A DNA stretch of 64,000 nucleotides from Clostridium sp. CAG:762. Its GTDB lineage: Bacteria > Bacillota_I > Bacilli_A > RF39 > UBA660. The notes beneath the pieces are model-generated. The model did not search any database, was not told the origin of the DNA, and saw only the letters and a program-made list of their open reading frames with translations. This document shows, in pieces, positions 32,080 through 51,985 of this stretch. Numbering within the stretch: position 1 is the stretch's first letter; each line of letters opens with the position of its first letter. The position numbers and the translations under genes were made by a program. The DNA is taken from the NCBI GenBank assembly GCA_000432575.1, contig HF996829.1, positions 35,272-99,271 on the forward strand, given 5' to 3'.

Positions 32080-32264
32080 AACATCACTCCCATAACAAGT
32101 TTTTTCATAAATTTATTTTACACAATTTTCCATAAAAAGTAAATGTTTTTTTTGGTTTTATTTGCTACGCTGTTATAGTGCGTAAAAATAATTTCATAAA
32201 TTTATATATCCTAGTATAAAATTACTAAATCTTGGCAAAATATTTAGTATTGGAGGTAATAAAT

Positions 32265-32795: not shown

Positions 32796-32848
32796 TAAAA
32801 TAATATTGCATTTTACCTAATAAATGTTATAATATGTTTGGTGATTTT

Positions 32849-33457: not shown

Positions 33458-33548
33458 GCATTTTTTAAAAAAACATTTTTTCCCATATTTCATTCATATT
33501 CCTTTGATAATTACTTACTATAATACTTAAGACAAGGAAGGAAATTAT

Positions 33549-34631: not shown

Positions 34632-34676
34632 TAAAACTCCATGTACATAAGATTAACTTATTACATAGAGTTTTTT

Positions 34677-35024: not shown

Positions 35025-35036
35025 TATATCACCTCC

Positions 35037-35345: not shown

Positions 35346-35427
35346 ATAACCACTTCCTACATAAATTCTATGTAGAAAAAAATTTATTGAATATTTAAAT
35401 AATACAAAAAAATGCAAATATTTAAAA

Positions 35428-38400
35428 TTATTTACATTTTTTTTCTTCCTCTAATTTTTTATAATAATCATATCTATTCTTTGCCCACACCTTCTGTTTT
35501 TGAAGTAATTCTTTATTCTCAATAACATTATATCTATTTTGACTACCTAAAAATTCCTCATAAAGATTAAAATCAACATTCTTACTATCAAGCGTAAAAT
35601 TTAAAGTAACAGGATCGTATCTAAAAGTTAAGAAATATCCACATTTCGTAGCCAAAGAAGCATTTTCTAAATCAGTTCCCATTCCCTTTTTAATACCATG
35701 CTCTATACAAGGAGCATATGCAATAATCAAAGATGGCCCTTTATGATTAATAGCCTCATCAAGTACTTTTAAATATTGTTCCTTATTATAACCAATATTA
35801 ACACAAGCTACATATACATTGGGATAACACATTGCCATTCTTGCTAAATCCTTTTTATAATTAGTCTTACCTGAAGATGCAAAAGATGCAATTGCCCCAA
35901 GAGAAGTAGACTTCGATGCCTGCCCACCAGTATTAGAATAAACCTCTGTATCAAGCACTAAAATATTAATATCATTATCAGTAGATAAAACATGATCTAA
36001 ACCACCAAAACCAATATCATAAGCAAATCCATCACCACCAATAACAAAAACAGTCTTAGGAAGTATATAATCTTTATTCTCTTCTAAATATTTATCATAA
36101 TCAAGATTATCATAAACATACTTACATATATTATAATCATTATAATTATCTAATAAATTTTTAACAAGTTCCTTATTCTTTCTACTAAATTTAGCATTCA
36201 TAAGATATTCTCTTAAATCATCACGCTTCTTTTGATAACTTATCTCAATTCCAAGACCATACTCACTATTATCTTCAAAAAGAGAACTAGCCCAAGCCAC
36301 CGAATATGGTGTTGATGGCGAAGATGCCCCATAAATTGAAGAACATCCTGTAGCATTAGCAATAACCAAACCATCACCCACATATTGTGTCAAATTCTTA
36401 ATATAAGGTGTTTCTCCGCATCCTGCACACGCTCCAGAAAACTCAAACTTTGGACGATTAAACATTATATTTTTAACATTCTTAACATCATAATTATAAT
36501 TAATATTTAAATTATTATTAACTAAATTATCAAAATCTTCTTGACGACATTTACTCTTATCATAATTAATTAAACATAAAGCCTTATTTCCCATCTTACC
36601 AGGACAAGCATTTACACATAAACCACATCCTGTACAATCTTCATAACTAATAGCAATCTTATAATTTGCATCCATATTACTCTTAGAAAGTACTGCCTTA
36701 ATAGAATTATCATTACTTTCCGTTAAAAATGGCCTAATAACCGCATGAGGACAAACAAAAGCACATTGATTACATTGAATACAATTTTCCTTTTTCCAAA
36801 AAGGTACTACCTCCGTAATATTTCTCTTTTCATACTTCGTACTACCACCTTCATAAATACCTTCCTTATTCTTCAAAAACGCTGAAACTGGCAAATCATC
36901 ACCTTTTAAATAATTAATAATCTCCTCATTATTTTTATAAACAATATCTTTATAACTTAAATCCTTCCATTTCTCTTCCACTTTAATTTCTACTAAATAA
37001 TCAAGAGCCTTATCCACTATAACATTATTAATTTCAATTATCTTTTCTCCCTTACTTAAAAACCTATGCTTATTCTGTGCTTTCATAATAGCCTTTACTT
37101 TATCTATCTTAATAATATTAATTAGTTTAAAAATAGCAATCTCCATACAAGTACTAATCTTATTCTTAAGCCCAACCTCATTAACTATCTTATTTGCATC
37201 TATTATATAAAATCTAATGTTTTTCGTAGCTAATAAATACTTAACCTTATCAGGTAAACTAGTAACTATCTCTTTTTCATTTAAATTAGTATTCAACAAA
37301 AGAATCCCATTATCACAGACATTATCTAAAATATCATACTTATACATATAGCTATCCTTAGAAACCACGACTAATTTAGGATTTAAAGGATAATATGGCT
37401 TTTGAAACTCCTCATTACCTATTCTCAAATAACTCCTAGTAACGCCTCCACTTTTCTTAGAATCATATTGAAAATAACCCTGTACATACTTATTAGTATT
37501 ATCACCAATAATCTTAAGAACATCTTTTGATGTTGAAACCATTCCATCAGACCCATAACCATAAAATAAATACTCATCTAAATCACTAGGTATAACAAAA
37601 TTTTTATCAAAATTCAAACTTAAATTAGTTACATCATCATTAATACCAATAGTAAAATTATTATGTATCTTACCTTCCTCAACATAATCAAAAATAGCCT
37701 TAATATGAGCAGGAGTAGTATTCTTAGAAGATAATCCATACCTACCACCATAAATATTAACATTCATATCCTTTAAAGCACTACAAACATCTAAATAAAG
37801 TGCCTCCCCATTAGAACCCGCTTCCTTACTACGATCTAATACAACAATATTCTTAACACTATTAGGTATTTTACTAAGTAAATGTTTATTACTAAAAGGA
37901 CGATATAAGTGTACCGAAATAACTCCATATTTTTTATTATACTTATCATTCAAATAAGAAACAGTTTCATGTATTGTATCACAAACACTACCCATAGCAA
38001 TAATTATCGTATCAGGATTATCTGCTCCATAATAATTAAACGGTTTATAATTAGTCTTACATATCTTATTAACCTTATCCATATAGTAACATACATCAAG
38101 AATTGCATCTTCATAAAATTTATTTCTCACTTCCATACATTGAAAATAAGTGTCCTCATTTTGAGCCGTTCCTCTAGTATTAGGCCTTTCTGGATTAATC
38201 GCCTTAACCCTAAAATCATTAAGACTCTTCTTATCAATCAATTCCTTTATTTTATCATTATTTATTAACCTAATCTTATTTATTTCATGACTTGTACGAA
38301 ACCCATCGAAAAAATGAATAAAAGGCAAACTAGACTTAATCGCCGCTAAATGAGCAACATTAGCTAAATGATAAGCCTCAATGGGATTATTTGAACATAA

Positions 38401-38811
38401 CATACATACCCCAGACATTCTTGTCGCATATATATCTTGATGATCACCAAAAATTGATAAAGCATGTGTCGATATACTGCGTGCCGCAACATGAATAACT
38501 AAAGGCAACATTTCTCCAGCTACTTTATATAACGAAGGTATCATTAAAAGCAAACCCTGACTAGCCGTAAATGTCGTAGCTAAGGAACCAGCTTGAAGTG
38601 CACCATGAACGAGTCCTATTGCCCCAGCCTCACTTTGCATCTCTACCACTTTAACTTTATTACCAAAAAAATTAACATTATCCTTAGTCATTTTATCAAC
38701 CAACTCTGCCATAGGAGAAGCAGGAGTTATTGGATATATTCCACATATTTCACTAAAGTTATAAGCCACACTAGCAACGGCATTATTCGCATCCATTGTT
38801 TTATATTTCAT
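35428..38811 (-). CDS. nifJ: Pyruvate:ferredoxin (flavodoxin) oxidoreductase
   Basis: 1127 aa with two 4Fe-4S ferredoxin motifs (CIQCNQCAFVCPHAVIRP, CTGCGLCVNACP) and a TPP-binding GGDGFAYDIGFGGLDHV. Confidence 0.95.
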   Translation of the reverse strand: MKYKTMDANNAVASVAYNFSEICGIYPITPASPMAELVDKMTKDNVNFFGNKVKVVEMQSEAGAIGLVHGALQAGSLATTFTASQGLLLMIPSLYKVAGEMLPLVIHVAARSISTHALSIFGDHQDIYATRMSGVCMLCSNNPIEAYHLANVAHLAAIKSSLPFIHFFDGFRTSHEINKIRLINNDKIKELIDKKSLNDFRVKAINPERPNTRGTAQNEDTYFQCMEVRNKFYEDAILDVCYYMDKVNKICKTNYKPFNYYGADNPDTIIIAMGSVCDTIHETVSYLNDKYNKKYGVISVHLYRPFSNKHLLSKIPNSVKNIVVLDRSKEAGSNGEALYLDVCSALKDMNVNIYGGRYGLSSKNTTPAHIKAIFDYVEEGKIHNNFTIGINDDVTNLSLNFDKNFVIPSDLDEYLFYGYGSDGMVSTSKDVLKIIGDNTNKYVQGYFQYDSKKSGGVTRSYLRIGNEEFQKPYYPLNPKLVVVSKDSYMYKYDILDNVCDNGILLLNTNLNEKEIVTSLPDKVKYLLATKNIRFYIIDANKIVNEVGLKNKISTCMEIAIFKLINIIKIDKVKAIMKAQNKHRFLSKGEKIIEINNVIVDKALDYLVEIKVEEKWKDLSYKDIVYKNNEEIINYLKGDDLPVSAFLKNKEGIYEGGSTKYEKRNITEVVPFWKKENCIQCNQCAFVCPHAVIRPFLTESNDNSIKAVLSKSNMDANYKIAISYEDCTGCGLCVNACPGKMGNKALCLINYDKSKCRQEDFDNLVNNNLNINYNYDVKNVKNIMFNRPKFEFSGACAGCGETPYIKNLTQYVGDGLVIANATGCSSIYGASSPSTPYSVAWASSLFEDNSEYGLGIEISYQKKRDDLREYLMNAKFSRKNKELVKNLLDNYNDYNICKYVYDNLDYDKYLEENKDYILPKTVFVIGGDGFAYDIGFGGLDHVLSTDNDINILVLDTEVYSNTGGQASKSTSLGAIASFASSGKTNYKKDLARMAMCYPNVYVACVNIGYNKEQYLKVLDEAINHKGPSLIIAYAPCIEHGIKKGMGTDLENASLATKCGYFLTFRYDPVTLNFTLDSKNVDFNLYEEFLGSQNRYNVIENKELLQKQKVWAKNRYDYYKKLEEEKKCK

Positions 38812-38867
38812 ACAATTCCTTCTTCCTATTATAATTTTATCACAAAATTAGAAAAAAAGATACCAAG

Positions 38868-39701
38868 TTACAAGATATCTTCCTTAATAAAATCAATTAT
38901 CTTTTCACCCATTTTATCCCCATTAACAACCAAATATTTCTTTTTAATTTGATAATCTTTCATAAAACTATCTATCTTATCACAAACCCCTTTATTATCT
39001 AAAAATATAATTCCATCAACCGCCTCCTGATAATAAAAAATGGCTCCACATAATTTCTTATTATAAATATCATTTTTAACATGCTTAGCATAACTAGCAC
39101 CAAGTTTTTTGTTTAAAACATTAGCATATATCAAACCAATATCGTTATTAATAATATAATTATAACTTACATCATCTACATATCTATCATAAATACTATC
39201 ATACATTGAAACTATCAAAATTTTCTTGTTTTCATTATAAAGCATATTGTTTTGATTATTTAAAACTATCCTCTTAATCTTAACTTCCTTATTTTTAGCC
39301 TTAATAAAAGCATAAACTATTCTAAAAACATTCTTACTCACCCTAAAACCCATACAAAAAAAAGAATAAAACTCCAATAATAAATTATCGTAATCTTTAT
39401 ATAAAATCATTGAAATATTAGGTAAAACTCTCATTATATCTTGATAAAAGCAATTATTTTCTACTAAAACATAATCACATTTATTAAACAAATAAAAAAT
39501 ATGACTCATATAAATCTTATTATTATAACTAGTATTAATATTAAATATCGTTGCATTTTCTCGTATTTCGTCATTAGTACTAGGACTCACACATACACTA
39601 CAACCCAAATACTTAAAAAAATTTCTCCATAACTTATTATTTTTATAATATAAATATGCCCTAGGTAGTCCGATTATCTTTTTTCTCATATATCTCTCCA
39701 A
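38868..39701 (-). CDS. DUF2229-like protein (family associated with CoA-substrate-specific enzyme activases)
   Basis: N-terminal IIGLPRAYLYYKNNKLWRNFFKYLGCSVCVSPSTNDEIRENA resembles the DUF2229 signature; moderate-to-low confidence. Confidence 0.4.
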   Translation of the reverse strand: MERYMRKKIIGLPRAYLYYKNNKLWRNFFKYLGCSVCVSPSTNDEIRENATIFNINTSYNNKIYMSHIFYLFNKCDYVLVENNCFYQDIMRVLPNISMILYKDYDNLLLEFYSFFCMGFRVSKNVFRIVYAFIKAKNKEVKIKRIVLNNQNNMLYNENKKILIVSMYDSIYDRYVDDVSYNYIINNDIGLIYANVLNKKLGASYAKHVKNDIYNKKLCGAIFYYQEAVDGIIFLDNKGVCDKIDSFMKDYQIKKKYLVVNGDKMGEKIIDFIKEDIL

Positions 39702-39726
39702 TAAAATCTATGTAAAAATATTCATT

Positions 39727-40374
39727 TTATTCTAAACTATCTATAAAACTTTGAAATAATCTTCTTTGATAAACATCATCATTTTCTTCTGGGTGCCATT
39801 GGCAAGCAAGAAAAAATCTTTTACTATTATCCTCAAATCCTTCAATAACATTATCTTCACTTTTGGCATTTACAAAAAGAAAAGAACCCTTTACTTGATA
39901 ATTATGTCTTGAGCATACCATTATTGTCTCACTCTTCAAAATACTATATAACTTAGAATTTCTTCTTATTTTTACAGAATGATTAACTTTATAATGATTA
40001 TTCACTCTTACATAATTACCTCCCTTATAAAAAGCCATAGATTGCATACCAAGACATATCCCTAACGTAGGAATGTCATTTTTATATAAATAATCTATAA
40101 TCCTAATATCAAAATCATAAAACTCATCACCTCCCTGTAAAATAATACCATTACACATCTTAATTAAATCTAACATCTTATTAAAATCATAATCAGTAAT
40201 TTTAGGTCCTTCTTCATAACCAAAATCAATATAATTATCTTTACACGGTGGAATAATTACCATAACATTAACGTTATATCTTTGAATAACCTCTAATAAT
40301 TTCTTATTAACAACCATAACAAAATTATTTTGACTAGTTATATCTGGCCTAGCTACAATACCTATTATTTTCAT
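39727..40374 (-). CDS. Class I glutamine amidotransferase-like/peptidase C26 (gamma-glutamyl hydrolase family)
   Basis: Catalytic Cys GICLGMQ and His/Glu QWHPE. Start at MKIIGIV, which has a GGGGA RBS (track ORF to 40422). Confidence 0.7.
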   Translation of the reverse strand: MKIIGIVARPDITSQNNFVMVVNKKLLEVIQRYNVNVMVIIPPCKDNYIDFGYEEGPKITDYDFNKMLDLIKMCNGIILQGGDEFYDFDIRIIDYLYKNDIPTLGICLGMQSMAFYKGGNYVRVNNHYKVNHSVKIRRNSKLYSILKSETIMVCSRHNYQVKGSFLFVNAKSEDNVIEGFEDNSKRFFLACQWHPEENDDVYQRRLFQSFIDSLE

Positions 40375-40545
40375 ATAATCCCCAAAATAAAATATGAAAA
40401 AAAATAAAAATATATAACACAATTTTCAAAATAACTCTAAAATCTTAAACCATTAAAACAAAAAATATCAATTTTTTACAAATTTAGTATTCTCTAACTA
40501 TTAAAACTATGTTATAATAATTACAAAGAATAAAGAGGTGCTAAA

Positions 40546-41211
40546 ATGAATGAATTACTTTTTTTAGTTACAATTATAGTGTGCATGACAGGAATAATCG
40601 CTTTTTACAAGTACCTTGGTCATGATGGACTATATCTTTGGATTATCATTGCAACAATATTTTCATTCATTGCATCATTTAGAACGATGCCCTTATGCAA
40701 CTTTAATGTTAATGGAGCCTTTCCAATTCTCAGTTCCATCTATATATGCATTTTTATTCTAATAGAAAAGTACAATAAAAAAGAAACTAAAAAAGTTATC
40801 TCAGTTACTATTTTCACGATGCTAATAACAATATTTTATTTCTATATATCTTCAGTATATAAACCAAGCATCTATGATAATACTTCCGTTTACCTAACCA
40901 AACTATTAGAAAATAATTTCCTTAACTTAATACTATTTACAATAATGCTAGGACTAAGTGAATATTTAATAATTATTATATATAAACACATTAAAGAATA
41001 TTATGATAATCCATTTGTTAAAAATTGTTTAACCACGATTGTAATAAGCATCATTGATACAGCTATATATTTACCTATTATTTATCTTGGTAACAATAGC
41101 ATGAATGTAACTTATGTTGTACTTGCTACCTATACATTTAAATTAATGACATCAATTCTTTATTTACCTTTTATCTATTATATATTAACATTAAAGAAGG
41201 TGAAAAAATGA
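40546..41211 (+). CDS. Putative VUT-family (DUF165/YhhQ-like) vitamin/queuosine-precursor transporter, paralog 1
   Basis: About 220-aa six-TM protein with a pattern resembling YhhQ; weak. Confidence 0.4.
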   Translation: MNELLFLVTIIVCMTGIIAFYKYLGHDGLYLWIIIATIFSFIASFRTMPLCNFNVNGAFPILSSIYICIFILIEKYNKKETKKVISVTIFTMLITIFYFYISSVYKPSIYDNTSVYLTKLLENNFLNLILFTIMLGLSEYLIIIIYKHIKEYYDNPFVKNCLTTIVISIIDTAIYLPIIYLGNNSMNVTYVVLATYTFKLMTSILYLPFIYYILTLKKVKK

Positions 41212-41870
41212 ATGAATTAATTTTATTAATAGAAATTATTGTTACGTTTTTCGCACTTATCATGGCAAATAAATTATATGGTAAAAATGGTCTTTACTTT
41301 TGGTTAATAATATCCATAATTGCATCGACCATTCTCAGTGTCAAAACTGTCATTATATTCAAATATGAAGTAAGTCTTGGCATTGTTCCATATGTATCTA
41401 ATTTCATTTGCATGAACATCCTAGTTCAAAAATATGGAACCGAACAAAATAGAAAAATAGTTATCTGCTCTATTATGTCGCTTATTTTCTCATATTTTCT
41501 TATATTAATATTAAATAACTGTAGTATAGATTATATTAATTTAGAAAATAACGAAGCATTTATCAATGTTTTTAAACTAGATATTATCAAATGCATAGCC
41601 TTTGTAATAGCCTACATCGCTTCCATTTTAGCGAATATTGAACTATACTATCAAATAAGAAAAACTAAAAATAAAATATGGATTAGTAACCTCATAAGTA
41701 CTATAATCATACAATTTACAGATACTGTTTTATATTCAATTATTGCCTACCTTGTTTTTGCCGACATAAAATTTTTTGTCTTTTCTATAATAATTACTAC
41801 TATCATTAAATACATCGTGGGTATAATTGGCACAGGAGCAATATATATATGTAAAAAAATAGAAGATTAA
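41208..41870 (+). CDS. Putative VUT-family transporter, paralog 2 (4-nt ATGA overlap with paralog 1)
   Basis: Same length and topology, and a similar N-terminus (MNELI..); weak. Confidence 0.4.
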   Translation: MNELILLIEIIVTFFALIMANKLYGKNGLYFWLIISIIASTILSVKTVIIFKYEVSLGIVPYVSNFICMNILVQKYGTEQNRKIVICSIMSLIFSYFLILILNNCSIDYINLENNEAFINVFKLDIIKCIAFVIAYIASILANIELYYQIRKTKNKIWISNLISTIIIQFTDTVLYSIIAYLVFADIKFFVFSIIITTIIKYIVGIIGTGAIYICKKIED

Positions 41871-41883
41871 GGAGTATAACAAT

Positions 41884-42549
41884 ATGAGAACAAGCAAAGA
41901 AGAACTAATATCTAACGAATTAAAACCAATAATATGTCAAAAAATAAAAGATGCTAGAATTAAGTTTGGATATTCATTAGAAGATTTAGCAAAAGCACTT
42001 AATTATCAAAAAAACAGACAAACATTACATAAATATGAAAACGGCACATTAAATATTCCTTATAATATTTTATTTGAAATATGTCGCATTTTTAATATCG
42101 AAGATATTGATATCAGTAATATGCCGATTGACAAAGAAACAAAAAATAAATTCGAGCATAAATTTGTTAAAGATTATGTAAATAGCACTAGAAAAGATAA
42201 ACACTTAACTCCATATATTGAAAAAATTGTAGAAACATACAAAAATGCTATTTACGAACCTATTACAAATGCAAGTGATTTAACTATCAAAGTTATAGAC
42301 GATTCCATGGAACCTGCCTATTTAAAAAATGATAAAGTGAACATTGTTAAATTAGATTCCTACAAAAACGGAGACGACATTGTTATAGCCATTAAAAATA
42401 ACATCTTAGCCGTACGTAGGCTATATAAATATCCTAAAGGCATAATTTTACAAGCATTAAATCCCAAATATCAAACAATTAATATAAATATTGTATCAAA
42501 TGATATGATATTAGGAAAAGTTGTATCCTTAAAAAGAGAAATAAAATAG
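41884..42549 (+). CDS. XRE-family HTH regulator with a C-terminal S24 (LexA/CI-like) peptidase domain
   Basis: N-terminal HTH LEDLAKALNYQKNRQTLHKYENG; C-terminal ..DDSMEPAYLKNDKV.. (Ser-Lys dyad context). Confidence 0.65.
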   Translation: MRTSKEELISNELKPIICQKIKDARIKFGYSLEDLAKALNYQKNRQTLHKYENGTLNIPYNILFEICRIFNIEDIDISNMPIDKETKNKFEHKFVKDYVNSTRKDKHLTPYIEKIVETYKNAIYEPITNASDLTIKVIDDSMEPAYLKNDKVNIVKLDSYKNGDDIVIAIKNNILAVRRLYKYPKGIILQALNPKYQTININIVSNDMILGKVVSLKREIK

Positions 42550-42554
42550 TAATT

Positions 42555-42597
42555 ATGAACTGAACCCCAAAAGTTGGACAGTTTATTAATAGTTTCT
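42555..42597 (+). repeat. Solo IS3-family terminal inverted repeat (copy 1), TGAACTGAACCCCAAAAGTTGGACAGTTTATTAATAGTTTCTA
   Basis: Identical 43 bp occur at 46278..46320 next to an IS3 transposase C-terminal remnant; begins with the TGAACTG typical of IS3/IS150-group IRs. Confidence 0.5.
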
Positions 42598-42598
42598 A

Positions 42599-43066
42599 TT
42601 GGGTATTACCGACATCACAATAAATAGTAATGGTTTATATTATACTGGTGGAGGTGCTGGCACTAGTTATAAAACAAATATAGGACAGTCAACAACAGGA
42701 AATATAACTGGAGTATATGATATGAGTGGAGGAGCATATGAATATGTAATGGGAAATTATAATAAAACAGCAGGTAATTCAGGTCTAACAGTAAGTGGAA
42801 TACCTGCAGAACATATAGATATTTATTCAGGAACAAGCGTATCAGCAAGCCACCTAGGGGATGCAACAGGAGAGACAGCAGGCTGGTATAGTGATTACGC
42901 GGACTTTGTTAATTCTTCTAATCCCTGGTTCACTCGTGGAGGTAATTTTTATGATACTATGTCGTATGGTGGTATATTTAGTTTTGGATTCCCTATAAAT
43001 GGTGAATATAGCACTGGAATAAGTAAAGAAACTCATTCTTTTCGTACAGTCCTCTCAATAAAATAA
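42599..43066 (+). CDS. Gly/Thr/Ser/Tyr-rich ORF with atypical composition, probably the 3' part of a truncated gene (TTG start in the track)
   Basis: ..GGGAGTSYKTNIGQSTTGNITGVYDMSGGAYEYVMGNY..NPWFTRGGNFYDTMSYGGIFSFGFP... Starts 1 nt after the IS repeat; markedly more G-rich than the neighbouring DNA. Confidence 0.3.
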   Translation: MGITDITINSNGLYYTGGGAGTSYKTNIGQSTTGNITGVYDMSGGAYEYVMGNYNKTAGNSGLTVSGIPAEHIDIYSGTSVSASHLGDATGETAGWYSDYADFVNSSNPWFTRGGNFYDTMSYGGIFSFGFPINGEYSTGISKETHSFRTVLSIK

Positions 43067-43151
43067 GAAAATCTTAATTTTACAATATCTATGAAAATTA
43101 TTTCATAAAAAGATAAAACCTATGTTATAATAGTATTGAGGTTGATATATT

Positions 43152-43577
43152 ATGAGTTTTATATGGTTGTTATGTAAAGTAATTTTGGCAATTGAAGGGT
43201 ATAATATTATAGTAGATTATATTATTACTAAGAAAGCATTTAATGATATCAAAAAAGAATATAATTTTTTAATTAAGCCTAAATATAATATTAGGGATAA
43301 TCTTTCTTTTAATATCTTAATTGATATTATTAGTATACATACTAAATTAAAATATTATCATGAATTTAAAAGTCTCTTAATTGAAGAATTTTTAAATGAA
43401 AACATTATTGTCGTTAAAATTCAAGAACAAACTACTTATATTGAAAAAGATAAAGACATGAATAATTGCAGTAATTATAATAAAGAAAATGATAACATTA
43501 TAAATAATTATAATAACAACAAAAATAAAAACAAACCTAAAAAACTTGTTAAAAAGAAAGAAGATAGAAGAAAGTAA
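43152..43577 (+). CDS. Hypothetical protein (141 aa) with an Asn/Lys-rich tail
   Basis: ORF only. Confidence 0.3.
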   Translation: MSFIWLLCKVILAIEGYNIIVDYIITKKAFNDIKKEYNFLIKPKYNIRDNLSFNILIDIISIHTKLKYYHEFKSLLIEEFLNENIIVVKIQEQTTYIEKDKDMNNCSNYNKENDNIINNYNNNKNKNKPKKLVKKKEDRRK

Positions 43578-43630
43578 CAATTACTATTTCTATCTTTTTT
43601 TAATTAGCATATAATTTTTTAGGTGAATAT

Positions 43631-44470
43631 ATGAAAAAGATATTTCAATTTATAGGTTTATTTGTATTAATATGTTTCAGTTTCTTTTATACCGAAAAAG
43701 CCATCACTGTATTAAACGAACAAGATCCTATCATGGTCGAAATAGAAAATAAAAAAGACCATTACTATCTCAAACCAATTGATGCTACTATTAAATATAA
43801 CACTATCATTCCAGGAATAAGAGGAAAAGAAGTAAATATTAATAAAACATATGATAACATGAAAAAAATAGGTTTCTTTAATGAAAAAAACATCATTTAT
43901 GATGATATTAAACCTAGTATTAGTTTATGCGATAACTATGATAAATACATAATAAGAGGTAATAGTATTAAAAACAGCATTGCCTTACTATTTATTATCA
44001 AGGAAGATAAATACCTAGATAATTTAATTAGAATTGCCAAAGATAAAGATATAACAGTCAATCTATTCATAACCACTGATTATCTAAATAATAACATATC
44101 TAAATTATATAAATTAACAAATACCGAAATATATAACTTTGGTAATGAAGGTATTTATCAAAAAGATTTAATCATATTAGGTAATAACATTATTAATAGA
44201 AATGCCAAAAATAGATCAAGTTATTGTTTAACCAAAGAAATGTTTACAGATACCCTAAATATTTGTACCAAAAATAAAATGCATACAATATATCCTAGTA
44301 AAATAATTAATAGTAACTTTTATAGTAATATAAAAAGTGATATTACTAAAGGAGATATTATCTTACTTGAATTAACTAATAATATGTTAGAAGAACTAAA
44401 TACTATCATTGATTTCATTAAGAAAAAAGGCATTAATATTATAGGTTTAAACGAATTATTAAATGAATAG
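43631..44470 (+). CDS. Degenerate polysaccharide-deacetylase-like (NodB-fold) protein with a signal/TM anchor
   Basis: Resembles PdaB/YlxY-like proteins, but the catalytic TFDDG motif is replaced (NSIALLFIIKEDKY). Confidence 0.4.
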   Translation: MKKIFQFIGLFVLICFSFFYTEKAITVLNEQDPIMVEIENKKDHYYLKPIDATIKYNTIIPGIRGKEVNINKTYDNMKKIGFFNEKNIIYDDIKPSISLCDNYDKYIIRGNSIKNSIALLFIIKEDKYLDNLIRIAKDKDITVNLFITTDYLNNNISKLYKLTNTEIYNFGNEGIYQKDLIILGNNIINRNAKNRSSYCLTKEMFTDTLNICTKNKMHTIYPSKIINSNFYSNIKSDITKGDIILLELTNNMLEELNTIIDFIKKKGINIIGLNELLNE

Positions 44471-44627
44471 AAAATTATTTACTATTATTTATTTACATAC
44501 GATAAAAGAACTTTAAAGAACTATAACCGCGATAGCAAACAACATAAAAGACTGTCTTGTCTTTTTTTCTTTTATATGATATAATCTATATTGTCTTTAT
44601 ACTTTATTAATTTATGAAAGGAGAAAA

Positions 44628-46274
44628 ATGAGTAAAATTAAAATGTTTAGTCTCGGTGGTTTAAACGAAACTGGTAAAAACATGTTTGTAATTGAAATAA
44701 ATAAAAACATCCTTATCTTCGATGCCGGACTTAAATATATGGATTCAGGAGCATTAGGAATAGATTATATCATTCCTAACACTGATTATTTAAAAGAAAA
44801 TATTAATAGAATAAAAGGGATCTTTTTAACACATGGTCATGATGAAAATATCGGGGCATTAGAAGACATTATTCCAAGTTTAGATGGAGTTAATATATAT
44901 GCCGCGAAATTCACTTTAGATATCATAAAAAAGAATTTTGAAGAAAGTCATATTCCAACAAATAAATTAATTGAAATCAAACCACACAAAACCATTACTG
45001 TAGGAGGCATCAACATATTTCCGGTTAGCCTAAGCCATTCTATTCCAGATAACCTAGGCTTTGCTATTTATACCGATGATGGTGTAATTTTCTATGCTAG
45101 TGATTTTGTATTCGATTCAATGATGACAGATGTTTATCAAACAGATGTTGGAAAACTAGCTTACATTGGTAAACAAGGTGTCCTATGTCTCCTAAGTGAG
45201 TCAATGTTTGCAAGTAGACCTGGTTTTACATCCCCAAATCATAGAATAGGTAGTCTAATCAAAGAAGCATTAAGCAACTGTGAAGGCAGAATTATATTTA
45301 ATACATTATCATCCCATTTATATAGAATACAAGAACTATTTAATGAAGTATCAAAGACAAAGAGAAAAGTAGTAATAATGGGAAAAAAGTTACAAAATAT
45401 AATAAACGATGCCATTACTAATAACTATTTGAATGTAAATAAAGACATCATAGGAGATTTAAGCAATATCAATGATAACAATGTTATTATCCTAGTATCA
45501 ACCGAAAAAGAAAAGCCATATTCTAACATTGTTAAAATCGTAAATGGCTATGATAAATTTATCAAATTAAAAGAAACAGACACAATGTTTATTGCAATAC
45601 CAGTATATGTAGGTAAAGAAAAAATATATTATGAAATGCTTGATAACATTGCTAAAACAGGTTCTAACATCATAACCTTATCTCCAAAAAACAATCTATC
45701 ACTTCATGCCTCTCAAGAAGATTTAATGTTAATGTTAAACCTAATGAAACCAAAATATTATTTCCCAATTAAAGGAGAATATCGTTTCCAAGTTGATAAT
45801 GGGGAACTTGCTTACAAACTAGGTATGCCAAAAGAAAATATCTTATTAAAACAAAATGGTGATGTTGTATCTATTACAGATGGAAAATTAGATAATAGGT
45901 TTGAGCATATTAACTGTGAACCTATCCTAATCGATGGAGACATGCCTGATGACATTGGTGAAATTGTCTTAAAAGATAGAGAATTACTTAAAGATAATGG
46001 TATTGTCATCGTATCTGTTACCTTAAATAAAGAAAATAAAAAGATAATTGCAGGACCTGAAATATTAACAAGAGGCTTCATTTATGTAAAAGATAACACT
46101 GTTTTAATTAGAGACATGTCTAAATTAGTAAGTGATTTAATAACCACTAATACAAGATTTCATTATGTTGACTATGTAAAATTAAAAAATTTAATTCGTG
46201 AAGAACTAAGCAAATTTTTATACAAAGAAACCGAATGCAATCCTATGATTATATCTATTATTCAAGAAATATAA
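44628..46274 (+). CDS. rnj: Ribonuclease J (metallo-beta-lactamase/beta-CASP)
   Basis: MSKIKMFSLGGLNETGKNMFVIE.., LTHGHDENIG (motif II, non-canonical), and a beta-CASP plus C-terminal domain; 548 aa. Confidence 0.9.
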   Translation: MSKIKMFSLGGLNETGKNMFVIEINKNILIFDAGLKYMDSGALGIDYIIPNTDYLKENINRIKGIFLTHGHDENIGALEDIIPSLDGVNIYAAKFTLDIIKKNFEESHIPTNKLIEIKPHKTITVGGINIFPVSLSHSIPDNLGFAIYTDDGVIFYASDFVFDSMMTDVYQTDVGKLAYIGKQGVLCLLSESMFASRPGFTSPNHRIGSLIKEALSNCEGRIIFNTLSSHLYRIQELFNEVSKTKRKVVIMGKKLQNIINDAITNNYLNVNKDIIGDLSNINDNNVIILVSTEKEKPYSNIVKIVNGYDKFIKLKETDTMFIAIPVYVGKEKIYYEMLDNIAKTGSNIITLSPKNNLSLHASQEDLMLMLNLMKPKYYFPIKGEYRFQVDNGELAYKLGMPKENILLKQNGDVVSITDGKLDNRFEHINCEPILIDGDMPDDIGEIVLKDRELLKDNGIVIVSVTLNKENKKIIAGPEILTRGFIYVKDNTVLIRDMSKLVSDLITTNTRFHYVDYVKLKNLIREELSKFLYKETECNPMIISIIQEI

Positions 46275-46277
46275 CTA

Positions 46278-46320
46278 GTTTTAATGAACTGAACCCCAAA
46301 AGTTGGACAGTTTATTAATA
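46278..46320 (+). repeat. IS3-family terminal inverted repeat (copy 2), identical to 42555..42597
   Basis: 43/43 identity in direct orientation. Confidence 0.5.
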
Positions 46321-46332
46321 GTTTCTAATTAG

Positions 46333-46470
46333 AGGATTGTAATCTGTAATTTACGGGTGACAATCCTTTTAATTTTTCTTTTATTCTATCATAATTATAA
46401 TAATAAATATAGTCATCAATCGCTAAAATTAATTCATCTAGTGTTTCAAAAATGTAACTTAAAAAGTTAC
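46333..46470 (-). pseudogene. Remnant of an IS3-family transposase (OrfB C-terminus only)
   Basis: The minus strand translates to ETLDELILAIDDYIYYYNYDRIKEKLKGLSPVNYRLQSSN*, the conserved C-terminal tail of IS3-family integrase-core transposases; no upstream body. Confidence 0.55.
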
Positions 46471-46475
46471 ACGGT

Positions 46476-46510
46476 CTCGTTAGGTCTCGTTAGGTCTGGT
46501 CTCGTTAACT
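46476..46510. repeat. Short tandem decamer repeat (GGTCTCGTTA x about 3.5)
   Basis: CGGTCTCGTTAGGTCTCGTTAGGTCTGGTCTCGTTAAC, at the point where the IS remnant is truncated. Confidence 0.5.
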
Positions 46511-46640
46511 TAACTGTGTCCTACTTAGACACAGTTAAATGAAAAAGGTCAGGCATTTAAAGAAAGTATATAATGTTTTCAAATTAAATGATATAATTTT
46601 TTTAAAGTGTAAATATATTATTTTAGGGATGTGGTTATAT

Positions 46641-47639
46641 ATGTTAGATATAGATTTTAATCAAATTATTGAAATGATTGAAAAACGGAAAAAAAATGCA
46701 TATAAAAAAGTAAATGAAGAAATGATTTTATTATATTTAGAAGTTGGTAAATTTTTATATGAGCTAAAAGAAGACAGTAATTATGGTGATAAAATAACAA
46801 CTAAAGCCTCAGATTTTATGAAAAATAATTATCCAACTATAAAAGGATTTACTAAAAGAAATATAGAACGTATGATTCAATTTTATAGTACTTATAAAGA
46901 TGATGAGATTGCGACACCACTGGTGACGCAATTGTCGTGGACAAACAATCTACTTATATTAAGTGGAGCTAAAAGCAAAGAGGAAAGACACTTTTATTTA
47001 AAATTATCTGTTAAAAATAATTATTCAAAAAGAGAATTAGATAGACAAATATCATCCGCATATTATGAAAGATATATGCTTTCAGGGGGAGAGCAATTAC
47101 CAATAGTAAATAAAACAGTAGATGAAGATGATTATCCAAATACTAGAATTTTAGATACATATAGTTTAGAGTTTTTAGATTTACCTAATGAATTTTCTGA
47201 AAAGGATTTGAAAAATGCAATTATAAAGAACTTAAAAGATTTTATATTAGAAGTTGGTAAAGATTTTACTTTTATTGGGGATGAATATAGAGTTCAAGTT
47301 GGAAATCATGACTTCTTTATTGATCTATTATTTTATAACAGAGAGCTATCTTGTTTAGTAGCATTTGAATTAAAATTAGGAGAATTTAAAGCAGAATATT
47401 TAGGGAAAATGAATTTATATTTAGAAGCACTAGATAGAGATGTGAAAAAAGAACTAGAGAATCCAAGTGTTGGGGTTATATTATGTAGTTCTAAAGATGC
47501 AGATGTTGTTGAATATTCAATTAGTAAAAACATGTCTCAGACTATGATTTCTAAATATAAGTTAGAATTAATTGATAAAAAATTATTAGAGACAAAACTT
47601 AAAGAAATGAAAAATTTGATAGATAATAATGATAAATAG
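46641..47639 (+). CDS. YhcG-like DUF1016 protein with a PD-(D/E)xK nuclease domain
   Basis: The C-terminal ..GDEYRVQVGNHDFFIDLLFYNRELSCLVAFELKLGEF.. has a D..ELK arrangement. Start at the internal Met (track ORF from 46539). Confidence 0.6.
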   Translation: MLDIDFNQIIEMIEKRKKNAYKKVNEEMILLYLEVGKFLYELKEDSNYGDKITTKASDFMKNNYPTIKGFTKRNIERMIQFYSTYKDDEIATPLVTQLSWTNNLLILSGAKSKEERHFYLKLSVKNNYSKRELDRQISSAYYERYMLSGGEQLPIVNKTVDEDDYPNTRILDTYSLEFLDLPNEFSEKDLKNAIIKNLKDFILEVGKDFTFIGDEYRVQVGNHDFFIDLLFYNRELSCLVAFELKLGEFKAEYLGKMNLYLEALDRDVKKELENPSVGVILCSSKDADVVEYSISKNMSQTMISKYKLELIDKKLLETKLKEMKNLIDNNDK

Positions 47640-47875
47640 TATTTTGAAAGTTAGTTGATATTATGATAAAAAATCACTAATTGAGACACAACTAATAAAA
47701 ATGTTTATTTTAAAAGAACATTTAACATTTGTAACTTAGTACTGATTTAATAATTTGATAGATATATATAGTTTCTAGATGTTGTATAATATGATGTTTA
47801 AATTATAATTTTGTATTACAAAAGATAAATAATTGTTATAAAGTATGATCAATAGCAAAAAAATAAAAATACTAC

Positions 47876-47905
47876 TTGACAAAATGTTTAATATAATATA
47901 TATTG
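47876..47905 (+). promoter_or_regulatory. Candidate sigma-A promoter upstream of secE (TTGACA-17-TATATT)
   Basis: ACTTGACAAAATGTTTAATATAATATATATTG. Confidence 0.35.
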
Positions 47906-47945
47906 TATTTAGACACGAGATAGTGTTTTTATTTTGGAGGAAAGT

Positions 47946-48119
47946 ATGAAAAAAATAGCTAGATATTTTAGCGGTGTTAAAAAGGAGATTAGTCGTGTTA
48001 GATGGCTAAGTAAAAAAAATTTAGTTAAATTTTCTATTGCTACTATTAGTTTTGTAGTTTTCTTTAGTTTATATTTTTACGCGATTGATTATATTACGGC
48101 ATGGCTTAGGACTTTATAA
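47946..48119 (+). CDS. secE: Preprotein translocase subunit SecE
   Basis: MKKIARYFSGVKKEISRVRWLSKKNLVKFSIATISFVVFFSLYF plus conserved position before nusG. Confidence 0.8.
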   Translation: MKKIARYFSGVKKEISRVRWLSKKNLVKFSIATISFVVFFSLYFYAIDYITAWLRTL

Positions 48120-48673
48120 TGGAATTAGAAAAAGAAAATAAGAAAAAAGAATGGTTTGTTGTTAATACTGTTTCAGGTCATGAATACAAGGTAAAAGAAA
48201 AACTTGAGATGCGTATTGAAACAATGGGGTTACAGGATCGTATATTTAGAGTTATTGTTCCTGAACAAAAAGAAATTGAATATAAAGATGGCGTAAAAAA
48301 AGAAAAAGTAAAGAAAATGTTTCCTGGTTATGTACTTATTGAAATGATTATGAATGATGATGACTGGTTTATCGTTAGAAATACTCAAGGTGTAACTGGT
48401 TTCATTGGATCGTCTGGTAAGGGTGCTAAACCAATACCATTATTACCACAAGAAGTTGATAAGATACTCGGTAATATGGGTATGAGTAGAATTGATATAA
48501 CTAAGGAATTAAAAGAAGGTAATAAGGTTAAGATAGTAAGTGGACCATTTAAAGATATGATAGGTAAAATTGCTAGTGTAGATTTAAAGGAACAAAAACT
48601 TACTGTATTAATTGATTTATTTGGTCAAGAAACTTCAGTAGAAGTGGAACTTGCTCAAATAGAAAATTTATAA
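48119..48673 (+). CDS. nusG: Transcription termination/antitermination factor NusG
   Basis: EWFVVNTVSGHEYKVKEKLE, KMFPGYVLIEM, and a C-terminal KOW (GNKVKIVSGPFKDMIGKI). Confidence 0.95.
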   Translation: MELEKENKKKEWFVVNTVSGHEYKVKEKLEMRIETMGLQDRIFRVIVPEQKEIEYKDGVKKEKVKKMFPGYVLIEMIMNDDDWFIVRNTQGVTGFIGSSGKGAKPIPLLPQEVDKILGNMGMSRIDITKELKEGNKVKIVSGPFKDMIGKIASVDLKEQKLTVLIDLFGQETSVEVELAQIENL

Positions 48674-48819
48674 AAATTTGAAAAGTTATTGCTAAAATAA
48701 AAAAAATGTGTTATTATTTTAAACGCAGCTGTATATTATATACAGATATATGGGACTTTTAGTGGGAGGCGGAAGCTAATTGAACCACATGCGAAAAATT
48801 ATTATAGGAGGTGTTTTTC

Positions 48820-49242
48820 GTGGCAAAACAAGTCGTTAAAAAGATTAAATTGCAAATCCCAGCAGGAAAAGCAACACCTGCTCCACCAGTTGGAACAGTA
48901 TTAGGACCTGCGGGTATTAATTTACAAGAGTTTTGTACTAAGTATAATGATGCTACTAGAGATAAGATGGGAGATATTTTACCAGTAGAAATTACTATTT
49001 TTGATGATAGAAGTTTCGATTTTGTAATTAAGACTCCACCTGCTGCTTTTATGCTTAAGAAAGCTGCTGGAATTAAAAAAGGCTCTACTAAGGGTAGTAA
49101 AGAAAAAGTAGGTAGTATTACTCAAGATAAATTAAGAGAAATTGCTGAAACTAAGTTAGTAGATTTAAATGCTTATGATGTAGAAAGTGCAATGAAGTCT
49201 ATTGAAGGTACCGCTAAAAATATGGGTATCGAAATTAAATAG
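48820..49242 (+). CDS. rplK: 50S ribosomal protein L11 (GTG start)
   Basis: [33 protein letters not shown]..; preceded by an AGGAGG RBS. Confidence 0.9.
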
Positions 49243-49310
49243 TATTCACATATAGGTAATACCTATGTGGAAGGAAAAAGTCCGCTAATAACCACATAAG
49301 GAGGATTAAG

Positions 49311-50003
49311 ATGAGAAAAAGTAAAAGACATATTGAAAACCTTAAAAAAGTTGAGAAGAATAAGTTATATTCAGTAGAAGAAGCTATTAAATTAGCTAAG
49401 GAAACTTCTAATAGTAAGTTTGATTCTACTTTAGAAGTGGCAATGAATCTTAACTTGGATGTTAAAAAAGCTGATCAACAATTAAGAGGGGCAGTTGTTT
49501 TACCTAATGGAACTGGTAAAAGTAAAAAGATATTAGTTCTTGCTAAAGCAGATAAAGCTAAAGAAGCTGTAAGTGCTGGTGCTGAATATGTAGGAGATAT
49601 TGATATGATAGATAAAATCGCTAAAGAAAATTGGTTTGATTTTGATGTTATTATTGCTACTCCTGATATGATGCCTGCTTTAGGTAAAATTGGTAAAATT
49701 TTGGGACCTAAAGGTTTAATGCCTAATCCTAAAACTGGTACTGTTACTACTGATGTTAAGAAGGCAGTAGAAGAAACTAAAAAAGGTAAAGTTGAATATC
49801 GTACTGATACATTTGGTAATGTACATGCAATATTTGGTAAAGCAAGTTTTGATGATGCAAAATTAGCAGAAAACTTAAAATCTTTTGTAGAAGTAATTTT
49901 AAAAGCTAAACCTCAAACAGTAAAAGGTAATTATGTTAAAAATATTTCTATTTCTAGTACCATGGGTCCTGGAATAAAAATCGATGTAAACTCATTTAAT
50001 TAA
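49311..50003 (+). CDS. rplA: 50S ribosomal protein L1
   Basis: 230 aa with the conserved L1 sequence; AGGAGG RBS. Confidence 0.95.
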
Positions 50004-50012
50004 AAAAATGTT

Positions 50013-50041
50013 TACAAAATAAGAAATGTGTTATATAATAC
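50013..50041 (+). promoter_or_regulatory. Sigma-A type promoter (TTTACA-17-TATAAT) for rplJL
   Basis: TTTACAAAATAAGAAATGTGTTATATAAT. Confidence 0.55.
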
Positions 50042-50169
50042 ATTAAAAAGCGAGTACCATAGACAGTAGGTATAAAGGTAAATCCTACCGAGGAACTTAT
50101 TAATTATGTTTTAATTATAAGCTTTCCTTGGTATGGGAAAGCTTATTTTAAATATATAAGGAGGAAACT
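50042..50169 (+). promoter_or_regulatory. Ribosomal protein L10 leader (autoregulatory 5'-UTR of rplJ)
   Basis: Conserved position; 9-bp stem AAGCTTTCC..GGAAAGCTT plus an upstream stem GTAGGTAT..AATCCTAC (compare L10(L12)4-binding leaders). Confidence 0.55.
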
Positions 50170-50664
50170 ATGGCTAATGTAAAGATTTTAGAACAAAAGC
50201 AAAATGTTATTAATGAGATTAAAGATAGAATTAATAATGCTGCTTCAGTTGTTGTCTTTGATTATCGTGGTTTGACTGTTAGTGAAGTTACTGAGCTAAG
50301 AAGAAAACTAAGAGAATCAGGTTCATCATTTAAAGTATATAAAAATACTTTAACTAAAAGAGCATTAAATGATTTAAATATCGATCTTCATACACATTTT
50401 GAGGGTCCAAGTGCTATATCATTTTCAACTGATGCTTTAGCCCCAGTGAAGGTATTAAGCGATTTTGCTAAGAAACATGAGGCTTTAGAATTAAAAGTTG
50501 GATTAATTGATGGTAAGATAACTGATACAACTGAGTTAGGTAAGTTAGCTACTATACCTGATAGGCAAACATTACTTACTATGCTTGCATGTGGACTTAT
50601 GGGTAAAGTTAAAGATTTATCTATATGCCTAGATTTATATTCTAAGAAATTAGAAGAAAAATAA
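50170..50664 (+). CDS. rplJ: 50S ribosomal protein L10
   Basis: 164 aa; conserved. Confidence 0.95.
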   Translation: MANVKILEQKQNVINEIKDRINNAASVVVFDYRGLTVSEVTELRRKLRESGSSFKVYKNTLTKRALNDLNIDLHTHFEGPSAISFSTDALAPVKVLSDFAKKHEALELKVGLIDGKITDTTELGKLATIPDRQTLLTMLACGLMGKVKDLSICLDLYSKKLEEK

Positions 50665-50695
50665 GAAAATAAAAAAAATTAAGGAGGAATTTAAA

Positions 50696-51064
50696 ATGGC
50701 TAAATTTAGTAAAGAAGAATTTATCAATGGTTTAAAAGAAATGACTATTCTTGAAGTTAACGAATTAGTAGAAGCAATGAAGGAGGAATTTGGTGTAGAT
50801 CCATCTGCAGTAGCTGTTGCCGCAGCACCTGCTCAAGCACAAGCTGAAGAAGGTCCATCAAAAGTAAATGTAGTATTAACTGCTGCTGGAGCTAATAAGA
50901 TTGCTGTTATTAAAATCGTTAGAGACTTAACTGGTTTAGGTTTAAAAGAAGCTAAAGATATCGCTGATAACGGTGGTAATGTTAAAGAAAACATTGATAA
51001 AGAAGAAGCTGAAAAAATCAAAGCTCAATTTGAAGAAGCTGGCGCTACTGTTGAATTAAAGTAG
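50696..51064 (+). CDS. rplL: 50S ribosomal protein L7/L12
   Basis: An Ala-rich hinge AVAVAAAPAQAQAEE and a C-terminal domain. Confidence 0.95.
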   Translation: MAKFSKEEFINGLKEMTILEVNELVEAMKEEFGVDPSAVAVAAAPAQAQAEEGPSKVNVVLTAAGANKIAVIKIVRDLTGLGLKEAKDIADNGGNVKENIDKEEAEKIKAQFEEAGATVELK

Positions 51065-51070
51065 TTTGAG

Positions 51071-51103
51071 AAATCCACAAAGATGTGGATTTTTTTTGAT
51101 ATA
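51071..51103 (+). terminator. Rho-independent terminator after rplL
   Basis: AAATCCACAAAGATGTGGATTTTTTTTG. Confidence 0.7.
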
Positions 51104-51277
51104 TTTATTTAAACAAATGTTTGAAATTACTTGACAAATAATATCTTGTTTGTTATGATTTATGTGTTTGTATGAGTTATATTTTATATATTGTTTTGTT
51201 TCAGTGAATTAAAATGCGATAGCAAAAAAGTAAGAAAATGATAAAAATTGTTGAAAGGGCTGATAATTATGAGTCAT

Positions 51278-51868
51278 TATTTTATAAATGATGATAATTT
51301 AAAGAATGAAGAGAAAGTTATTCATAGTGAAATACAAGGAATTAATTTGTCTTTTTTATCCAATAGTGGTGTTTTTTCTAAAGATAAAATTGATTATGGT
51401 ACTAAGTTACTTCTTAATAGTATAGATATTGATGATATGAAGGGTGATGTTTTAGATTTAGGGTGTGGAATTGGAGTAATTGGTATAACTATTAAAAGTA
51501 AAAATAATCTTGTTTTGGTAGATATGGTTGATGTTAATGAGAGGGCTATTAATCTGTCTAAATATAATATGGTATTGAATAGGGTTGATACTCATATATT
51601 TATTAGTGATATTTATTCAAATGTTAATAAAAAATATGATTATATTATTACTAATCCTCCTATTAGAGCTGGTAAAAAGGTAGTTCTTGGAATGATTCTT
51701 GGTAGTTATGATTATTTAAATGATAATGGTATTTTATATTTTGTTATGAGAAAAGATCATGGTGTTAAAACTGTAATTAAAAAAATGGAAGGTATGTTTA
51801 AGGTAGATGTTATAAACCGAGATAAGGGGTTCTATATAGTAAAATGTGTTAAAATGAAAAAAAGTTAA
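51278..51868 (+). CDS. ybxB: Class I SAM-dependent rRNA methyltransferase (YbxB/RsmC-like small-domain MTase)
   Basis: VLDLGCGIGVIG and ITNPPIRAGK motifs; located between rplL and rpoB as in Bacillus. Start at MSHYF (track ORF from 51248). Confidence 0.75.
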   Translation, partial: YFINDDNLKNEEKVIHSEIQGINLSFLSNSGVFSKDKIDYGTKLLLNSIDIDDMKGDVLDLGCGIGVIGITIKSKNNLVLVDMVDVNERAINLSKYNMVLNRVDTHIFISDIYSNVNKKYDYIITNPPIRAGKKVVLGMILGSYDYLNDNGILYFVMRKDHGVKTVIKKMEGMFKVDVINRDKGFYIVKCVKMKKS

Positions 51869-51985
51869 AAAAGTTTGTAAAATCAATTGACTTATTGTTA
51901 AATATTTGTTAGTATTATAAATTGGAAACGCATCTTTTTGGCGTGCTAAAAACTATTATAAACTAAGTATAGGGGTGAATTTTTA

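Follow-up and report, generated by a model that had tools for sequence, protein, structure and literature searches.

Two truncated right ends of an IS3-family insertion sequence in terminator-hairpin loops beside a displaced rnj segment in the Clostridium sp. CAG:762 assembly

Insertion sequences (ISs) of the IS3 family possess terminal inverted repeats with 5'-TG...CA-3' ends, and the IS1447-type elements of Firmicutes carry 7-9 consecutive A where orfA meets orfB, a run that is associated with +1 transcriptional slippage (PMC6211511). The family members IS1397, ISKpn1 and ISPsy8 insert into repetitive extragenic palindromes, or palindromic units (REP/PU) (PMC1525189). The locus described here lies in a 64,000-nt stretch (the window in what follows, with positions counted from its first letter) of contig HF996829.1 of Clostridium sp. 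CAG:762, in which the 43-nt sequence TGAACTGAACCCCAAAAGTTGGACAGTTTATTAATAGTTTCTA occurs twice on the + strand, at 42556-42598 (copy 1) and 46285-46327 (copy 2), with 0 mismatches. Both copies correspond to the terminal 43 nt of an IS3-family IS of 1,438 bp. The window combines two insertions into terminator loops, one behind the regulator gene XRE-S24 and one behind the RNase J gene rnj, with two internal truncations (at IS nt 43 and 162) and the juxtaposition of three blocks, A (XRE-S24), B (rnj) and C (secE-nusG). Overall, this arrangement is probably best explained by truncated IS ends in terminator loops together with a real rearrangement that joined A, B and C.

Within the window, a third copy of the 43-mer is absent at up to 3 mismatches, and 0 copies are expected in 100 shuffles. 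Exact identity between the two copies amounts to 44 nt, as the A preceding the 43-mer is common to both; a weaker likeness 5' of the repeat (55 nt at 93%) belongs to the flank sequence, and past TTTCTA the copies are wholly dissimilar. The first-pass annotation of this DNA had already described two identical 43-bp direct repeats 3.7 kb apart, which is exact save for coordinates that were off by 1 and 7, and had placed each of them directly past a gene stop. The gaps are indeed short: copy 1 begins 6 nt past the stop of XRE-S24 (TAG, 42547-42549) and copy 2 begins 10 nt past that of rnj (TAA, 46272-46274). The further remark that a transposase remnant accompanies the second copy only also holds, copy 1 being without IS homology past nt 43.

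The nature of the repeat is apparent from copy 2, which runs on into the last ~40 codons of OrfB. The minus strand from 46328 to ~46447 encodes the C-terminal OrfB sequence FETLDELILAIDDYIYYYNYDRIKEKLKGLSPVNYRLQSSN followed by the stop, which matches Pfam rve_2 (E 3e-17) and corresponds to positions 331-369 of 369 in the NCBIfam IS3 transposase model. Since the CTA that ends the 43-mer is the OrfB stop, the 43-mer comprises the complement of this stop codon and the right inverted repeat. The outer tip of the IS (TG) points toward the upstream gene, and both tips in the window read TGAACTG..., i.e. they are ends of the 5'-TG...CA-3' type. Intact elements of 1,434-1,438 bp bear the 43-mer at their tip. 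In L031 (L-numbers are labels of compared contigs or loci), the complete IS spans 2171-3608 (1,438 bp), carries the 43-mer at 42/43 positions and encodes a 168-amino-acid (aa) OrfA as well as an orfB in the -1 frame, an offset computed from the coordinates of the open reading frames (ORFs). L130 harbors an intact IS at 11658-13095, at the same point after rnj as copy 2 and followed by TAA. The intact copies possess the left inverted repeat TGATATGAACCCCGTTTCTTGGAC and end on the right in ...GTCCAACTTTTGGGGTTCAGTTCA, and the domains in L031 and L130 are HTH_Tnp_1 in orfA and HTH_21, rve and rve_2 in orfB. The assignment of the repeat to the terminal inverted repeat of an IS3-family element is borne out by these relatives.

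The wider distribution of the ends was assessed by an inverted-repeat scan with one genome per species, using the first 24 nt, TGAACTGNACCCCAAAAGTTGGAC, as query. At least 17 contigs of AT-rich metagenome-assembled genomes from Bacilli/'Tenericutes' display the 43-mer at 39-42/43 positions, followed by the same transposase end; no 43/43 match occurs among the matches listed. Among the matches listed (L001-L120), TGAACTGNACCCCAAAAGTTGGAC is also kept in IS3-family ends of Proteobacteria, Bacteroidota, Spirochaetota, Chloroflexota and Bacillota, and in a few of them, including L001 and L010, the inverted repeat abuts its own reverse complement to form a palindrome of ~43 nt. Homologues of OrfB with more than 85% identity, named 'IS3 family transposase' by NCBI, are found on thousands of gut-metagenome contigs, and the many stand-alone OrfB contigs of ~1.43 kb are the signature of a multi-copy repeat. 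The closest relatives on annotated plasmids are Fusobacterium IS3-family elements (~71% identity) and, as the nearest with a name, ISBth167 (~65% DNA identity). Judging from annotation and from IS150-type inverted repeats, the IS probably belongs to the IS150-like/IS1447-like subgroup of Firmicutes. An A7 run at the orfA/orfB overlap on the minus strand (L031, ~3100-3110; L130, ~12590-12600) may be the counterpart of the A run in IS1447-type elements.

IS homology in the window is confined to two pieces, 46285-46446 (IS nt 1-162) and 42556-42598 (IS nt 1-43). The former is 91% identical to nt 1-162 of the L031 IS and agrees with the L130 IS at 158/162 nt (a hand count from the sequences); homology ends at 46446/46447. 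A left inverted repeat is absent from the window at up to 3 mismatches, and homology and repeat searches of the window returned no orfA, no catalytic core and no inverted partner of the repeat. Consequently, the window holds no complete, potentially autonomous IS. While the intact relatives resemble the IS3 family in length (1.43-1.44 kb), TG...CA ends, orfA/orfB in the -1 frame and 3-bp target duplications, what the window keeps of the right end is only 43 nt in one copy and 162 nt in the other, that is, relics rather than elements. Since the left end, orfA and a second inverted repeat are all lacking, they constitute neither a miniature inverted-repeat transposable element (MITE) nor a composite transposon. 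The MITE-like derivation offered in the first-pass annotation hence fails, each relic being a single end; two inverted repeats around a short core together with a target duplication were not found. A non-autonomous element of this kind, or a terminator or protein-binding motif recruited behind genes, could account for the position just past two stop codons and for the small imperfect hairpin into which the 43-mer folds. However, both copies in the 64 kb are accounted for as IS tips, a second inverted repeat is missing, copy 2 continues straight into transposase coding sequence, and the fold is no better than that of shuffles (z = -0.7 and -1.4), so that such an origin appears extremely improbable. 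Promoter-like and terminator-like counts equal the shuffle expectation, and no terminator-like site is called at the 43-mers. A function of the 43-mer in its own right was rejected, as both fold and promoter/terminator scans remain at shuffle level. The other option in the annotation, 'deletion scars', is probably correct, given that both copies are truncated relics at which the locus is rearranged.

Comparison with IS-free strains reveals where the IS had landed. The empty site behind XRE-S24 (L136) reads AAATAGTAATTA-actcac-TAATTACTATTT and folds at -11.5 kcal/mol (z = -7.5); in IS-free strains this hairpin lies between XRE-S24 and a Mur ligase gene. The empty site behind rnj (L121), aACTAGTtttaaatACTAGTttttttt, contains ACTAGT-tttaaat-ACTAGT and then a T-run, with the insertion point between agttttaa and atactag, precisely where L130 has the IS followed by TAA. 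At both sites of the window, the IS is thus located in a hairpin loop, and insertion into terminator-hairpin loops explains why both copies sit just past stop codons. The same was observed at further sites of the IS clade: in 8/8 reconstructable sites, namely the two in the window and those of L031, L157, L166, L171, L182 and L183, for which both flanks are readable, the 3-bp target duplication falls in the apical loop on top of a stem with 7 bp or more, which is usually followed by a T-run. L166 stands for Thomasclavelia isolate genomes, L171 is a site downstream of rpoC, and L182 and L183 are the ~71%-identity relatives on finished Fusobacterium plasmids; two further OrfB look-ups yielded one new insertion site each. 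The 3-bp target duplications are TAA (L130 and the rnj site of the window), TTT (L031), TAT (L157), GTA (L166), ACT (L171), ACT/TACT (L182) and CAT (L183), whereas copy 1 of the window keeps one flank only. As background, 5.4% of the window positions satisfy the apical-loop definition, so that the first six sites have a naive P of 2.5e-8; this value is to be read with the caution that the definition was fixed after the first sites had been seen and that n is 8, which weakens the case. The eight target hairpins are unrelated in sequence and mostly consist of a stem and a T-run, which suggests recognition of structure instead of sequence. The clade resembles IS1397, ISKpn1 and ISPsy8 of the same family in that these also insert into palindrome loops past genes and spare coding sequence (PMC1525189). 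In contrast to their targets, which form one REP/PU family, the eight hairpins recorded here are unrelated to each other and look like individual intrinsic terminators.

At the level of single bases, the window contains the following features around the two copies:

41884-42549, + strand: XRE-HTH/peptidase S24 regulator gene (XRE-S24; Pfam HTH_3 and Peptidase_S24), the last gene of block A.
42544-42555, + strand: left arm, AAATAGTAATTA, of the hairpin past XRE-S24; the right arm is missing (empty site in L136).
42556-42598, + strand: copy 1, IS nt 1-43, with the TG tip toward XRE-S24 and no IS sequence after it.
42599-43066, + strand: 155-aa ORF (CCZ57423), a 3' fragment of a 566/612-aa paralogous gene.
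43152-43577, + strand: 141-aa ORF, a native neighbor of the rnj locus, at the same position in L121-L130.
43631-44470, + strand: 279-aa ylxY-like ORF of the polysaccharide-deacetylase family, a native rnj neighbor with conserved position in L121-L130.
44628-46274, + strand: rnj, encoding RNase J (TIGR00649, E 3e-136; Pfam RNase J domains).
46273-46284, + strand: left arm (AACTAGT) and loop of the rnj terminator hairpin; the right arm and the T-run are missing.
46282-46284, + strand: target-site copy TAA, preceding IS nt 1-162.
46285-46327, + strand: copy 2, IS nt 1-43, the exact repeat match.
46328-46446, - strand: last ~40 codons of OrfB, IS nt 44-162 (rve_2; IS3 transposase model).
46447-46640, + strand: start of block C, upstream of the DUF1016 gene, beginning 34 nt past the stop of the 566-aa gene in L150.
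46641-47639, + strand: gene for a DUF1016/YhcG PDDEXK nuclease of 332 aa, with its real start at 46641; it is not a transposase.

The relics themselves are inert, as they lack a transposase, a second end and any fold stabler than that of shuffles. Their one effect is likely that XRE-S24 and rnj are left without the 3' arms of their terminators, of which only the 5' arms are kept.

The order of the window, block A, IS nt 1-43, the paralogue 3' fragment with the 141-aa ORF, the 279-aa ORF and rnj, IS nt 1-162, and finally DUF1016-secE-nusG, can be resolved into three blocks by comparison with other strains. The RNase J, XRE-S24 and NusG proteins of the window are each found identical on hundreds of contigs, and layouts were read from long contigs at 10 places per protein among these hundreds. 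Block A normally runs GATase, Vut, Vut, XRE-S24 and then convergent Mur ligase genes; block B comprises pnp, a helix-turn-helix gene, a 584-aa gene, a 612-aa gene, the 141-aa and 279-aa genes, rnj, radC and mreC; block C consists of dnaB, rplI, a 566-580-aa gene, Fic or DUF1016, secE, nusG and rplK. The blocks are far apart in more than 30 same-species contigs, and on one contig of 1.38 Mb, B is located at ~177 kb, A at ~900 kb (reversed) and C at ~1,024 kb. Hence, the 3.7-kb rnj interval is displaced, and it lies between blocks that normally stand ~110 kb from each other in inverted relative orientation. The first-pass annotation had envisaged an IS-linked remodelling upstream of rnj. A rearrangement linked to the IS is indeed visible, although it joins three distant blocks and is therefore larger than proposed, and its reality is uncertain; the requested comparison with related strains has also located the intact IS at rnj in L130.

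The individual matches are close. Window positions 31884-42555 are 99.3-99.6% identical to positions 1-10672 of ten strains (L131-L140), and block A stops at the base before the IS tip (42555). The sequence 42598-42910 agrees at 313/313 positions with the 3' part of the 566-aa gene in block C of L150, and from 42911 to 43066 the identity is with the 612-aa gene of block B, so that the switch between the paralogues falls inside 42872-42910 with 30-39 nt of shared identity. From 42911 to 46284, the window matches block B (612-aa 3' end, 141-aa, 279-aa, rnj), with 1 mismatch in 3,218 nt relative to L122. Finally, 46447-58673 is 100.000% identical to L150 8329-20555 (12,227 nt), including DUF1016, secE, nusG and downstream genes. 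The junctions inside the IS, IS nt 43 to TTGGGT... and IS nt 162 to AAAAATG..., both lead into the secE-nusG block or sequence paralogous to it. Each shows 1 bp of microhomology, and because a single base is shared with the partner, both are illegitimate joins.

These comparisons alter the view of the three 'odd ORFs' that had been noted between the repeats. In all normal strains examined, rnj is preceded by the 141-aa and 279-aa ORFs. They are consequently its regular neighbors, which speaks against a region upstream of rnj remodelled into odd ORFs; the 141-aa ORF has no Pfam family at threshold, and the 279-aa ORF matches TIGR02873 (E 5e-24) below the curated cut-off. The 'G/T-rich fragment' is a fragment, as had been stated, in the sense that it is the 3' end of the 566/612-aa paralogous gene, with a weak FGE-sulfatase-like match only.

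The parental paralogues of 584, 612 and 566-580 aa (window 42599-43066; L121 4578-8439; L150 6595-8295) have no Pfam match. They share ~76% identity over 1 kb and occur as strain mosaics with 591-612-aa variants and patches common to the paralogues, which suggests frequent gene conversion; as 612-type alleles with 566-like patches exist elsewhere (P0214), the paralogue switch may pre-date the rearrangement. In L150, the 566-aa gene closes with ~180 nt that, together with 34 nt downstream (8150-8329), have 52% G+C compared with ~27% for the genome; it is exactly this stretch that the rnj segment replaces in the window, and the contigs L154 and L155 of other assemblies start inside it. Among the compared loci, this GC-rich 3' end, considered as a possible genome-wide repeat behind a contig break, is matched only at that gene. 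The slot upstream of secE is variable, with Fic in most strains and DUF1016/YhcG in some, and in 10/10 contigs the DUF1016 context is of normal layout or too short. Upstream of DUF1016, 46448-46545 contains two hairpins, GTAACTTaaaAAGTTAC and AACTGTGTC...GACACAGTT, in addition to GGTCTCGTTA repeats, of which three copies are present in the window and in L150 (8330-8425) and one in L142 (~8370-8400). Elsewhere in the window, a find_repeats-type scan revealed a 124-nt unit present as four diverged copies in direct orientation at a spacing of 150-168 nt (5475-6081), and 25668-25917 is a tandem duplication of ~125 nt that includes an exact 44-nt repeat (25749-25792 / 25874-25917).

Direct IS-end repeats that bound a discrete 3.7-kb segment, with outer tips that meet target DNA exactly at TG, could be taken to indicate that transposase mobilized the rnj segment, either as a composite or in a one-ended manner, with the 43-mers as functional ends. 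Yet, transposition in the IS3 family requires one left and one right end, inverted relative to each other, whereas the two copies, both from incomplete ISs, are right ends that point the same way, and the window lacks a left inverted repeat. Moreover, the left border of the segment meets the inner side of copy 1 and not an IS tip, the rnj-side tip is an ordinary insertion at which L130 has a complete IS, and the 3.7-kb unit is without a flanking target duplication. Because of the direct right ends and the left border abutting the inner side of copy 1, transposase-driven mobilization can be set aside as very improbable.

A more serious competitor is an assembly chimera, in which the IS was truly inserted at both sites, and probably complete, in members of the population sampled, and an assembler or gap closer produced the contig path where sequences are multi-copy. 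What looks like 'truncations' after nt 43 and nt 162 would then be contig-end artefacts. The CAG genomes of Nielsen et al. (2014) are said to be co-abundance-guided short-read population assemblies, and since Clostridium sp. CAG:762 is such an assembly, the truncations might be assembly products. Several further observations weigh in the same direction and against a real rearrangement. The layout is unique to one contig among all examined, the three junctions of the window being absent from more than 30 other same-species contigs, and only one contig, of 134 kb (CAG:762), encodes the 155-aa hybrid product among ~15 billion proteins. L150, which by its name belongs to the same study series, is 100% identical to block C over 12.2 kb and has the normal layout with an intact 566-aa gene. 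Every seam coincides with the IS or a paralogous gene family, where assemblers err, and other assemblies likewise break contigs in the paralogue region. The exact repeat of 44 nt equals k-1 for k = 45, as expected for a unitig end. With the implied inversion, no fewer than 42 kb of genes would run head-on to the skew (see below). In addition, metagenome contigs of another species place one flank beside either IS end, which indicates that IS-borne flank shuffling is common in assemblies. In these contigs (L156-L165, from another spore-forming species), the gyrA 3' end stands beside the left IS end and elsewhere beside the right one, and some join flanks of different sites without target duplication; this mixing is due either to inversions mediated by the IS or to shuffling by the assembler where IS copies lie.

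Several features of the contig are nevertheless hard to reconcile with a chimera. The joins of IS nt 43 to TTGGGT and IS nt 162 to AAAAATG share 1 bp, and a de Bruijn graph needs reads containing them. Short-insert pairs cannot span a 1.4-kb IS, which leaves a scaffolder without links for three false joins, and there are no Ns in the window. Furthermore, the identity at the 566/612 switch (30-39 nt) is inconsistent with k = 45. On balance, we consider an assembly chimera possible but rather unlikely. K-mers of the IS43 and IS162 junctions gave 0 matches in JGI metagenome contigs, in which the species is possibly poorly represented. The contig index lists no 155-, 114- or 105-aa version of the fragment and no 61-aa + strand ORF over the IS162 junction, and the proteins of the window are the consecutive entries CCZ57421-57429 in gene order (Clostridium sp. 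CAG:762). That the 43-mers are right ends of the IS in terminator loops holds even if the contig is a chimera, which would put in doubt only whether the truncations and the order of the blocks are real.

The juxtaposition also leaves its mark on base composition. Between 1 and 41 kb the GC skew has a negative sign, which turns positive from 42 kb, and gene orientation switches at the same place. In the normal layout (L136), the skew remains negative through XRE-S24 and on into the Mur ligase genes. A replication origin at ~42 kb was rejected, as the normal layout is without a skew flip at XRE-S24; for the same reason, the flip is a product of the junction between blocks A and C. If real, the juxtaposition of A and C corresponds to an intra-replichore inversion of ~110 kb.

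Provided that the rearrangement is genuine, we propose with moderate confidence the following course of events, the shortest that we could construct. The IS would have inserted at both terminator loops, behind XRE-S24 and behind rnj. An illegitimate inversion of ~110 kb with breakpoints inside the XRE-S24 IS and in block C would have set A beside C. A break at the XRE-S24 relic would then have been repaired with the rnj locus as template, whereby IS homology would have anchored the right side and an illegitimate join closed the left. Such a repair would copy ~3.7 kb and leave IS nt 1-43 as a direct repeat on either side. Homology-facilitated illegitimate recombination, known from natural transformation, typically involves microhomology of 3-10 bp; in the window, one join would lie in the shared repeat (IS nt 1-162) and the other has 1-bp microhomology, and a process of this type may be suspected. 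One window is not enough to fix the order and number of events, and other orders fit equally well, for example, an initial nt-43 junction to a truncated 566-aa gene that was later converted ectopically from the 612-aa paralogue. The combined proposal that the clade recognizes terminator apical loops by structure and that the truncated copies are footprints of a recent IS-anchored break repair that duplicated a segment with the essential gene rnj is a tentative one, which we would sooner doubt than believe.

Taken together, the 43-mers and their extensions are ordinary IS relics with a modestly interesting target preference. The striking exact repeat comes down to two dead ends of a common IS, and the 'odd ORFs' to normal genes and one gene fragment. 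The contig layout around CCZ57421-57429 in this reference assembly is unmatched in the other contigs of the species examined and should be checked before it is used for synteny, replication skew or strain variation. Members of the IS clade abound in gut Bacillota and occur on Fusobacterium plasmids as well, and their apparent insertion into terminator loops is the aspect most worth notice. If true, this would amount to a 'safe-haven' strategy in which genes are spared and terminators are split. Loop targeting, if confirmed, would help to predict where these elements land, why they are tolerated and how they bring about read-through of neighboring genes.

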